Positions 53,774-55,664 of a stretch of DNA of 64,000 nucleotides are shown one piece after another. Under the pieces are notes generated by a model that saw nothing but the letters and a program-made list of their open reading frames with translations, did not search any database and was not told where the DNA came from. Numbering within the stretch: the first letter of the stretch is position 1; every line of letters begins with the position of its first letter. The translations under genes and the position numbers were made by a program. This DNA comes from Escherichia phage EF1-1, in sequence record PQ571289. One strand, given 5' to 3'.

Positions 53774-54178
53774 TTATTGAAGTTTAAGTGAACCACGAAG
53801 ACGTTTCTCTTGCTGATCACGGATATATTGTGGAACCTCGTGAATTGAATCATTACCGTGCCTATTTTCAACAACTAAAGAGATAACTTGATAACCAAAC
53901 TCTTCAGCAAGAGCTAGATAAGGTTTAAGTTCTTTCTCTGTGGTTGAAGTATTAGAAACAATAATCTTGTTAAGATTAGATGCCATAGCATCACGAACAA
54001 TACCCTGACACCAAGCGTGTGCTTTACCTACATTTTCTGGCTTCCAATCGTAAACACCACTTTCTGTGTAATGATATTGATCTGCCTCACAGATAGGCCA
54101 ATAACCTTCAGAAATAATTTCTGCTACTGTAGATTTACCAGCACCTGAAACGCCACGTAAAATGATAAGTTGTTTCAT
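53774..54178 (-). CDS. P-loop polynucleotide kinase-like protein
   Basis: Walker A LRGVSGAGKST at N-terminus; 134 aa like T4 Pnk kinase domain; abuts RNA ligase. Confidence 0.6.
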   Translation of the reverse strand: MKQLIILRGVSGAGKSTVAEIISEGYWPICEADQYHYTESGVYDWKPENVGKAHAWCQGIVRDAMASNLNKIIVSNTSTTEKELKPYLALAEEFGYQVISLVVENRHGNDSIHEVPQYIRDQQEKRLRGSLKLQ

Positions 54179-55111
54179 TTATCCTCCAAAGAAGTTTTCA
54201 ATTTTTTCACGTCGCTCTTGCTGATTTAAAGCAGCCCATTGAGTCTTCGTAAAATTATTTCGAATCCATTCTAACAAAGCGTAATATTCTTCGTCAACAA
54301 TTTGTTTGGCATTTTTTGGATTATCCCAAATCAGATCCCACTTTTTATCTCCACCGCGCATAAGAAACTTCTTAGTAAGATAGTATGGTGACTTAATCTT
54401 TAAGAGTAAGTTAAACGGATAGTTTGTTTCACGAACTACAAACCCTTCGTGTTTACAATGTTTAGACATTTCAACAACATCTGAAAACTTAACCATTGGA
54501 TGAACTTCAGGACGCTTAAATTTGGTGACAGAAGCAATTCCATCAAGAGCACCTTCAGGTAACATAAAACTTGTCCCATCAGGATTTTGAATTCTGGCAC
54601 CAATTAAGTATGCACCTGGTTCTTCTTCGACAATATGCGGATCAGAAGGATCACAGATTTCAAAAAGGAAAGTTGCTTTTGCACTCTCTGTCCATTTGAT
54701 GAAATGTTCTATGTCATCACACTCTGAAACAATATGATTCTTTGCAATACTTGCAAAATCTGATTCAAGGCTTCCTGTTGTCGATACAATAAGTTGACCT
54801 TTATATACACCTACAGAGGCCATAAAACCATTTACTTTACGAACCACATCTACAAATTCATCCGCTGGTAGATCTGTGCCATTCTCAAAACGATTAAAAA
54901 TCTTAGTGAAAGGCCAAATAACAACATTATCATCAGCGTCAACAACGATTCCGCGACATTCTAGAAGACGAGAATCAATGTTCCATAGGTTATCCCAGAA
55001 AACTTTGTTCTTATACTTAAGAACAGATAGACCAGAATACTCTCCTTCTTTATATGTTTTCTTATGAACTAAACCTTTTTCAACCAAATCGTCGCAATTA
55101 AATTTAGTCAC
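54179..55111 (-). CDS. RNA ligase, Rnl1 (T4 RnlA)-like
   Basis: LLECRGIVVD (T4 Rnl1 has ECRG), adenylylation lysine in KVNG. Confidence 0.6.
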   Translation of the reverse strand: MTKFNCDDLVEKGLVHKKTYKEGEYSGLSVLKYKNKVFWDNLWNIDSRLLECRGIVVDADDNVVIWPFTKIFNRFENGTDLPADEFVDVVRKVNGFMASVGVYKGQLIVSTTGSLESDFASIAKNHIVSECDDIEHFIKWTESAKATFLFEICDPSDPHIVEEEPGAYLIGARIQNPDGTSFMLPEGALDGIASVTKFKRPEVHPMVKFSDVVEMSKHCKHEGFVVRETNYPFNLLLKIKSPYYLTKKFLMRGGDKKWDLIWDNPKNAKQIVDEEYYALLEWIRNNFTKTQWAALNQQERREKIENFFGG

Positions 55112-55112
55112 A

Positions 55113-55664
55113 TTACTCTCCTTTGATTATTTTGTGATGGTCTACAGTTACGATATCTCGTTTACTCATCATAGAAATTATCTCATCAAAATGCAAGATT
55201 TTTCCGTGTGCATCCCAACCCACATCTAACATTTTACCATAAGCTTCATCAGGGAAAGATCCGTGGGAATGCCCGTGTAGCATGATTGATCCACGACCTT
55301 GTTTATTCCAGGAGGCAATAGGGTAATGGCTTAAGACGAAGAACAGCTTCTGGTATTTCACTTCGTCATAATACACCACTTCGCCATACTCTGCAAGCAC
55401 TTCTCGGTGCTTGCTGTAATCATGGTTCCCAACAAGATAAGTGATATCCCCTTGCAGACGGGAAGCAATCTTACGGGTATCTTCTTCAGTCCCGAAACAG
55501 AAGTCGCCCAAATGCCACATCTTAACACCAGGAGTAGTAGCGCATTTATTCCATGCTTCGATCAGTGCTTCTGTCATGTGGTCCATATCTTCCCACGGTC
55601 GATATTCAGGAGCAAACTCTCGTATACGTTTGTGCATAAAATGCAAATCACTTGTAATAAACAT
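55113..55664 (-). CDS. calcineurin-like metallophosphoesterase
   Basis: SDLHF, GDF..G, GNHD, GHSH metal-binding motifs. Confidence 0.7.
   Translation of the reverse strand: MFITSDLHFMHKRIREFAPEYRPWEDMDHMTEALIEAWNKCATTPGVKMWHLGDFCFGTEEDTRKIASRLQGDITYLVGNHDYSKHREVLAEYGEVVYYDEVKYQKLFFVLSHYPIASWNKQGRGSIMLHGHSHGSFPDEAYGKMLDVGWDAHGKILHFDEIISMMSKRDIVTVDHHKIIKGE

Follow-up and report, generated by a model that had tools for sequence, protein, structure and literature searches.

The question raised by positions 53774-55664 of the DNA of Escherichia phage EF1-1 (sequence record PQ571289) is whether three adjacent genes, encoding a metallophosphoesterase, an RNA ligase and a P-loop kinase, work together to repair RNA. 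The stretch analyzed, which is referred to below as the window, is 64,000 nucleotides long. Based on sequence comparisons and predicted structures, we think it likely that these genes specify a split form of a heal-and-seal pathway resembling that of phage T4 (the polynucleotide kinase-phosphatase Pnkp and the RNA ligase Rnl1) and repairing RNA broken by nucleases. The anti-defence role, the healing chemistry and the substrates described here are those that such a pathway would be predicted to have. In the order in which they are read, the three genes are as follows:

55113-55664, minus strand: calcineurin-superfamily metallophosphoesterase, 183 amino acids, with the motifs SDLHF, LGDFCFG, GNHD and HGHSH
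54179-55111, minus strand: Rnl1-type ATP-dependent RNA ligase, 310 amino acids, GTG start, with the motifs LLECRG and RKVNGF
53774-54178, minus strand: P-loop kinase of the polynucleotide-kinase clade, 134 amino acids, carrying MKQLIILRGVSGAGKST

A sequence-only reading of the window had described three contiguous genes here, each with characteristic motifs; their coordinates proved to be exact and every motif was present. Since the three products match Pfam and PHROG families (PHROG matches ranging from 2e-56 to 2e-70) and the ligase and phosphoesterase have many database homologues, these open reading frames (ORFs) are real genes rather than chance ORFs. In related phages they are annotated as "phosphoesterase", "RNA ligase (and tail fiber attachment catalyst)" and "ATPase". 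The window belongs to a phAPEC8-like myovirus (Phapecoctavirus, Stephanstirmvirinae), and bases 51500-57000 show 99.2% identity with Shigella phage SF1-1 and 96-98% identity with dozens of Escherichia phages. The phosphoesterase, ligase and kinase genes are packed for translational coupling: the stop codon of the small upstream gene ORF118 shares bases with the ATG of the phosphoesterase gene (TAATG), a single base separates the TAA of the phosphoesterase gene from the GTG of the ligase gene, which is preceded by AAAGGAGAG, and the ATG of the kinase gene, preceded by GGAGGA, directly abuts the TAA of the ligase gene. The Shine-Dalgarno-like sequences of the cassette genes are located within the preceding genes.

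The ligase, which has 2678 database homologues, matches the Pfam family RNA_lig_T4_1 (PF09511) over the full profile (1-227) with 59.5 bits, the gathering score being 28.3 (E = 5.7e-16). A single-sequence search against the PDB sequences gave no match and a profile was required: the profile built from an alignment of 24 homologues retrieved T4 Rnl1 (2C5U) at 1.3e-10, with the whole nucleotidyltransferase domain aligned (T4 residues ~50-248). Residues R53, K70, F72, K92, G95, E151, E222, G223, K238, and K240 are invariant in the 24 homologues and are equivalent to R54, K75, F77, K99, G102, E159, E227, G228, K240, and K242 of the T4 enzyme, respectively. Nucleotidyltransferase motifs I (K92/G95), III (E151), IV (E222/G223), and V (K238/K240) are therefore all present and aligned with those of T4, and 10 of the 11 catalytic residues checked against T4 Rnl1 are kept. 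In Foldseek comparisons between the AlphaFold (AF2) model of the ligase (predicted local distance difference test score, pLDDT, 91.6) and the PDB, T4 Rnl1 (5TT6, 2C5U, 9DO4) and the ligase domain of fungal Trl1 (Trl1-LIG) ranked at the top (4e-13 to 2e-11), and weaker matches were obtained with Rnl3 (~1e-10), Rnl2 (5e-8), and DNA ligases (1e-3 or weaker). This protein, which is present in 685 cultured phage genomes with hosts including Escherichia, Pseudomonas, Vibrio, Klebsiella, Acinetobacter, and Campylobacter, is thus most likely an RNA-sealing enzyme, as predicted from its sequence and model.

The kinase matches Pfam AAA_33 with 41.1 bits (cutoff 27, E = 2.7e-10). A profile was built from 27 homologues linked to the ligase, and the solved structures that it matched best were the kinase domain of Clostridium thermocellum Pnkp (CthPnkp) at 2.3e-13 and T4 Pnk at 5.9e-12 (residues 1-147), followed over the full domain by Capnocytophaga Pnkp1 (1.3e-11), the tRNA kinase PSTK (3.9e-11), and mammalian PNKP (~1e-9). 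Nicotinamide riboside, adenylate, and deoxynucleoside monophosphate (dNMP) kinases matched the profile at 1e-6 or weaker, and in the N-terminal, P-loop part only. G9, G14, K15, and D33 are invariant in the 27 homologues and T17 is nearly so; D33 aligns with the general-base aspartates D35 of T4 and D38 of CthPnkp. The sole aligned conserved arginine is R106, in ENRHGN, which corresponds to R122 of T4. A second ligase-linked kinase subfamily, found in more distant phages (loci L060, L065, L067, L073, and L075), has a T4-like lid, RLxSRxGK. On the strength of these comparisons the protein is predicted to be a 5'-OH kinase.

The phosphoesterase belongs to PHROG 547 (1.2e-55), and its family comprises 4291 representatives at E<=1e-10. 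In an alignment of 27 homologues, D54, N80, H81, H113, H132, and H134 are invariant and D6 and H8 nearly invariant, and the binuclear calcineurin-type metal site is complete (D6/H8, G53/D54, G79/N80/H81, H113, G131/H132, and H134). Calcineurin-type enzymes have a precedent in RNA repair, since CthPnkp and lambda phosphatase (lambda-Pase) hydrolyse 2',3'-cyclic phosphates (PMC2190708). Some proteins carry a domain of the phosphoesterase clade fused to other domains. In one of them (P0167), a domain showing 53% identity with the window protein is joined to an Rnl2-type RNA ligase with the motif KIHGTN, and in two others (P0189 and P0196) the partner is HAD_SAK_2, the "Swiss-army-knife" RNA-repair HAD phosphatase. 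A gene-calling read-through of two neighbouring genes was ruled out as the origin of P0167 because its Rnl2-type ligase half shows no similarity to the window ligase. We infer that the window protein may heal 3' ends, as a 2',3'-cyclic phosphodiesterase and/or a 3'-phosphatase.

The genome also encodes a second calcineurin-type phosphoesterase, at 29189-29932, which belongs to the lambda-phosphatase clade, as does the phosphatase of CthPnkp. 2',3'-Cyclic phosphodiesterase activity is known in vitro in this clade, and an ORF annotated as 'histidyl tRNA synthetase' is located near this gene in related phages.

The linkage of these genes was analyzed in 80 viral loci carrying a ligase of this type (88% to 35% ligase identity, contigs of up to 300 kb), neighbours being counted within 8 kb of the ligase by means of iterated profile searches of the locus ORFs. 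The phosphoesterase was found in 77 of the 80 loci and the kinase in 65, followed by an ATP-dependent DNA ligase (40), MazG (15), cREC (10), and ORF118 (2); all these partner genes share the strand of the ligase. Sir2 lay within the same distance in 10 loci. Within 600 bp of the ligase there were 54 phosphoesterases and 53 kinases, with both present in 36 loci, and the order phosphoesterase, ligase, kinase was the most frequent (35 loci). The linkage with the phosphoesterase and the kinase persists down to ~35% ligase identity, whereas the DNA ligase, MazG, and cREC shift or disappear. In phrog_8238, a PHROG of fused proteins, the kinase matches one end and the ligase the opposite one; none of the ORFs in the 160 loci fetched matched two cassette profiles at once.

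In some close relatives, namely in one locus (L086) and in four cultured phages (phiWec179, phiWec181, phiWec186, and PsgM04F), the ligase and kinase genes are jointly swapped for an unrelated 112-residue ORF with an HEAIH (HExxH) motif (6914-7252 in L086). The breakpoints correspond exactly to window positions 55111 and 53774, that is, to gene boundaries, and cREC, ORF118, and the phosphoesterase are retained in these variants. The fact that the two genes are exchanged together at gene boundaries suggests that the pair acts as one dispensable, swappable accessory unit, which fits a counter-defence function. In the Pakpunavirus Pseudomonas phage phiMK (locus L085, 3992-8172), genes for a phosphoribosyl pyrophosphate (PRPP) synthetase and a nicotinamide phosphoribosyltransferase directly follow the ligase-kinase pair; these are genes for the salvage of nicotinamide adenine dinucleotide (NAD), and their position hints that the cassette is connected with NAD metabolism also where there is no Sir2 or cREC.

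In the pathway proposed here, a host ribotoxin or anticodon nuclease would cut RNA, most plausibly host or phage tRNA, leaving 2',3'-cyclic-phosphate and 5'-OH ends. The metallophosphoesterase would strip the cyclic phosphate or 3'-phosphate to give a 3'-OH, possibly with the assistance of the upstream cREC protein in opening the cyclic phosphate; the P-loop kinase would add a phosphate to the 5'-OH, and the Rnl1-type ligase, adenylylated on K92, would seal the break. tRNA is favoured as the substrate because the ligase falls in the tRNA-repair/splicing clade, the analogous systems known so far target tRNA, and the phage has 11 tRNA genes. This pathway is supported by the agreement between the family models, the catalytic residues, the predicted fold, the gene linkage, and the domain fusions, and on the same grounds the earlier prediction that the three genes jointly supply RNA end-healing and sealing activities can be maintained. 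Two further claims of the sequence-only reading were also borne out: that the ligase is of Rnl1 type and not a DNA ligase (PF09511, the T4 Rnl1 profile match, and the AlphaFold/Foldseek ranking), and that the phosphatase, with its full metal site, is a calcineurin-type protein encoded by a gene of its own, unlike the fused HAD domain of T4. The case it had regarded as refuting, namely that the kinase acts on dNMPs, is unsupported, polynucleotide and tRNA kinases being the best matches over the full domain.

Several findings weigh against this pathway. In the ligase family, the position of T4 Rnl1 K119 is occupied by an invariant threonine, T112, in an S-T-T-G context; mutational analysis by the Shuman laboratory reportedly placed R54, K75, F77, and K119 of T4 Rnl1 among the essential Rnl1-specific residues. 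The ligase reaches only 24.8 bits with the NCBIfam T4 RnlA equivalog TIGR02308, the cutoff of which is 242. Its profile alignment with T4 Rnl1 stops at motif V, and the ~65 helical residues beyond this motif make up a domain about half as long as that of T4 Rnl1, where ~120 residues follow motif V. The matches with the Rnl1/Trl1 fold and profile, the absence of an RnlA equivalog match, and the short C-terminus lead us to view the ligase as a distinct subfamily inside the Rnl1/Trl1 clade. In the kinase, the hidden Markov model (HMM) alignment pairs R38 and R126 of T4 Pnk, which contact the acceptor nucleotide and the phosphates of ATP, with H36 and D110, so that there are no arginine equivalents; since these are missing from the alignment, a polynucleotide can only be called the predicted substrate of this kinase. 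The phosphoesterase scores below the gathering score of Pfam Metallophos_2 (1.2e-4), and its nearest solved relative is the uncharacterised Aquifex protein aq_1665 (1XM7, 1.7e-21), followed by weaker profile matches with GpdQ (2e-3) and a COG0622 protein; neither lambda-Pase nor CthPnkp was among its profile matches in the PDB at E<=1. The likeness to bacterial Pnkp healing enzymes claimed previously thus stands at the level of the superfamily and of the metal site, but not at that of the sequence, by which the protein is a member of the aq_1665 clade. The function of the cassette is also accessory, as natural variants lacking the ligase and kinase are viable. Lastly, no experimental study of any member of this type of cassette was found in the literature, including that on phAPEC8, rV5, PF26092, and aq_1665/1XM7.

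The other genes of the window that bear on this question are as follows:

56032-56388, minus strand: cREC protein, 118 amino acids, Pfam PF20274
55664-56020, minus strand: ORF118, small conserved protein with no assigned fold or function
51907-53034, minus strand: ATP-dependent DNA ligase with KLNGLR as motif I, 375 amino acids, PF01068
50789-51514, minus strand: MazG-superfamily nucleotide pyrophosphohydrolase, Pfam PRA-PH at 2.9e-6
29189-29932, minus strand: lambda-phosphatase homologue, matching 1G5B at 5.5e-27
22448-23263, minus strand: Sir2-family protein, 271 amino acids, Pfam SIR2 (PF02146)
60677-62586, plus strand: cluster of 11 phage tRNA genes (ARAGORN), outside the cassette, serving as context and possible substrates

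The two small ORFs upstream of the phosphoesterase gene had been put forward as possible members of the same module, and their cases differ. The first is a plausible member: it matches PF20274 with 52.7 bits (cutoff 27, E = 7.1e-14), and its receiver-like residues D8, D9, D52, D54, and K98 show no variation among 11 homologues. According to a prediction made without experiment by the Aravind group, cREC domains, which are linked to RNA ligases, open 2',3'-cyclic or ADP-ribose cyclic phosphates (Iyer et al., 2022, PMC9503650). The window protein is probably an accessory member of the module that opens 2',3'-cyclic phosphates, and its linkage with the ligase is confined to the closer relatives (the 10 loci mentioned above). 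ORF118 belongs to the family PF26092 and gave a confident structure model, for which no informative match with a solved fold was obtained; as it lies near the ligase in only 5 of the 80 loci of this comparison, it was rejected as a general member, and its membership of the module is doubtful.

The Sir2 homologue matches PF02146 at 1.3e-22 and shows 47% identity, over 276 aligned columns, with the Sir2 of the rV5-like phage JES2013, in which the Sir2 gene adjoins the ligase-cREC pair. In the window this gene lies ~30 kb from the cassette, where the block of minus-strand genes ends on the far side, and may possibly be a distal accessory. The role of MazG in the module is uncertain; its counterpart in related phages carries the annotation nucleotide pyrophosphohydrolase. 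The ligase with the KLNGLR motif, which had also been assigned tentatively to the module, was rejected as a member: it is a typical ATP-dependent DNA ligase (PF01068, PHROG 114, PRK09125) with no fixed place in relation to the RNA ligase, upstream of which it is found in some lineages and downstream in others. The asparagine replacing the canonical aspartate in its motif I occurs in this phage clade only (3 of 41 homologues), the other homologues having KxDGxR or a close variant.

The main alternative to the pathway proposed above, which we consider unlikely, is a 2'-phosphate route of the Trl1/Tpt1 type, in which cREC would open the cyclic phosphate into a 2'-phosphate and a 3'-OH, the kinase would phosphorylate the 5' end, the ligase would join the ends with a 2'-phosphate left behind, and Sir2, as an analogue of Tpt1/KptA, would remove this phosphate with NAD+. 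The task of the metallophosphoesterase would then be to dispose of side products, for example ADP-ribose cyclic phosphate, and not to heal RNA ends. Iyer et al. propose this Tpt1-like role for the sirtuin clade associated with such cassettes (PMC9503650), the window encodes both that sirtuin and cREC, and the ligase model fits Trl1-LIG just as well as T4 Rnl1. By sequence, however, the ligase profile retrieves T4 Rnl1 and not Trl1; the Sir2 gene is 30 kb off, Sir2 and cREC are each near the ligase in 10 loci as compared with 77 in the case of the phosphoesterase, and no sirtuin is known to remove an RNA 2'-phosphate. About as unlikely is the proposal that the cassette, together with cREC and the displaced Sir2, runs a eukaryote-like, Trl1/Tpt1-style route with the sirtuin as an NAD-dependent RNA 2'-phosphotransferase, and/or that ORF118 is a new RNA-end- or nucleotide-processing enzyme.

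In the heal-and-seal pathway, the kinase and phosphoesterase serve the RNA ligase; they might instead process DNA ends in the manner of PNKP on behalf of the nearby DNA ligase, as part of a replication/recombination block. The cassette does lie among DNA ligase, RdgC, MazG, and polymerase genes, DNA is also a substrate of T4 Pnkp and mammalian PNKP, and the phosphoesterase shows a weak match (E = 0.003) with PdeM, a ligase-associated DNA-damage endonuclease. The PdeM score is 17 bits as compared with a cutoff of 150, however, and it is the RNA ligase that the phosphoesterase (77 of 80 loci) and the kinase (65 of 80) follow, the DNA ligase being present in half of the loci (40 of 80) and in a variable position. 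As the fusion partners are in addition an RNA ligase and RNA-repair HAD domains, we regard DNA end processing as very unlikely.

It is slightly less probable still that the phosphoesterase and cREC degrade immune signals derived from cyclic nucleotides or ADP-ribose, and that the adjacency of the ligase and kinase is incidental. Calcineurin-like and cREC domains have been discussed as potential degraders, in phages, of cyclic and ADP-ribose-derived signals, both proteins are retained where the ligase and kinase are lost, and NAD-salvage genes abut the Pakpunavirus cassette, but the phosphoesterase adjoins the ligase across highly divergent phages and its clade is fused to RNA ligase and RNA-repair phosphatase domains. 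That the ligase homologue serves mainly in the attachment of tail fibres, which is the other activity of T4 gp63, is the least likely reading of all, since the label "RNA ligase and tail fiber protein attachment catalyst" borne by many records has been propagated from T4 gp63 via PHROG 562, the gene lies in an early/middle metabolic block distant from the structural genes, the catalytic ligase residues are invariant, and the partners are end-healing enzymes.

Some other features of the window were noted. The 11 tRNA genes at 60677-62586 include a tRNA-Tyr(GTA) gene (61370-61453, plus strand, ARAGORN) located between those for tRNA-Ser and tRNA-Asn. The RefSeq annotation of the related phage ukendt contains 10 tRNAs only, with a gap of 225 nt at the position of tRNA-Tyr, and this gene may therefore be unannotated there. 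At 57489-58094 on the minus strand, a 201-residue ORF resembling a homing endonuclease carries an AP2 DNA-binding domain (E = 1.3e-7, just under the gathering score); since SF1-1 and ukendt have two shorter annotated coding sequences ('transposase-like' and DUF1653) in its place, the window ORF may be the intact form. A strong sigma-70-like match (TTGACA-17-TATGAT; minus strand, 57598-57570) lies inside this ORF, and a terminator-like hairpin was detected at 49820-49797; neither carries any weight in the reading of the cassette, the promoter/terminator scan having been uninformative (42 promoter-like sites versus 34.5 +/- 5.6 expected). A 313-residue protein with DUF7277 and DUF7275 domains (E = 1e-75) and no assigned function is encoded in the same early gene block (25521-26462, minus strand).

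tRNA-cleaving defences, such as PrrC, RloC, PARIS, retron/PtuAB, Cas13 collateral cleavage, and colicin-type nucleases, are now seen as common. To our knowledge, T4 Pnkp/Rnl1 is the only phage RNA-repair counter-defence that has been tested experimentally. The type of cassette described here, which has so far been predicted by comparative genomics, is widespread, and since alleles lacking the ligase and kinase occur naturally, it provides a ready isogenic-like pair for probing whether RNA repair by phages broadens their host range against tRNA-targeting immunity. If the pathway proposed is correct, a function would be assigned to the large aq_1665-like metallophosphoesterase clade (the 4291 representatives mentioned above).

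Among the known systems, that formed by T4 Pnkp and Rnl1 (gp63) against PrrC has the same three activities, predicted here: 3'-healing, 5'-phosphorylation, and sealing by a member of the Rnl1 family. The sequence families of the ligase and kinase, the nucleotidyl-transfer motifs, the P-loop, and the catalytic aspartate are likewise the same. In T4 the 3' healer is a HAD domain fused to the kinase, whereas here it is a separate calcineurin-type protein; the window kinase lacks equivalents of R38 and R126, and in the ligase K119 is missing and the helical domain at the C-terminus is shorter. The cassette genes of the window are adjacent and coupled, whereas pseT and rnlA are separate loci in T4.

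CthPnkp resembles the cassette in using a binuclear calcineurin-superfamily phosphoesterase to heal 2',3'-cyclic or 3'-phosphate ends and in its kinase domain, the best solved match of the window kinase. It differs in being a single polypeptide with kinase, phosphatase, and ligase-like domains and in having the methyltransferase Hen1 as a partner; the window phosphoesterase shows no detectable sequence match with it, nor was a Hen1 noticed in the vicinity of the cassette. The fungal and plant Trl1 and Tpt1 enzymes share with the cassette the ligase fold, the accompanying polynucleotide kinase, and a cyclic-phosphate opener (2H in Trl1, the predicted cREC here), and the NAD-using Sir2 could take the place of Tpt1. 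Trl1, however, combines three functions in a single protein, uses 2H as its cyclic phosphodiesterase and depends on a 2'-phosphate, and the cassette contains no homologue of 2H or KptA.

The closest parallel in gene content is the type-2 sirtuin-centred phage RNA-repair neighbourhood described in Escherichia phage V5 and Proteus phage Mydo, which combines a T4-like tRNA ligase with cREC, a MazG pyrophosphatase, a nucleotide kinase and, in some cases, a calcineurin-like phosphoesterase, and is predicted to repair RNA (Iyer et al., 2022, PMC9503650). All five of these component genes are present at 50789-56388 and are orthologous to the set in the rV5-like JES2013, with identities of 48% for the ligase, 43% for the kinase, 36% for the phosphoesterase, 52% for cREC, and 47% for Sir2; JES2013 has the published layout, with a tRNA cluster ~4 kb from the cassette. 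The phosphoesterase is an occasional component in the published description, whereas it is the most constant partner in the present sample (77 of 80 loci). The genes are arranged divergently in the rV5-like phages, whereas in the window cREC, ORF118, the phosphoesterase, the ligase, and the kinase follow each other in this order on one strand. The sirtuin gene is adjacent in the type-2 neighbourhood and ~30 kb away in the window, and with Sir2 thus displaced, the window cassette can be regarded as a rearranged member of this computationally described kind.

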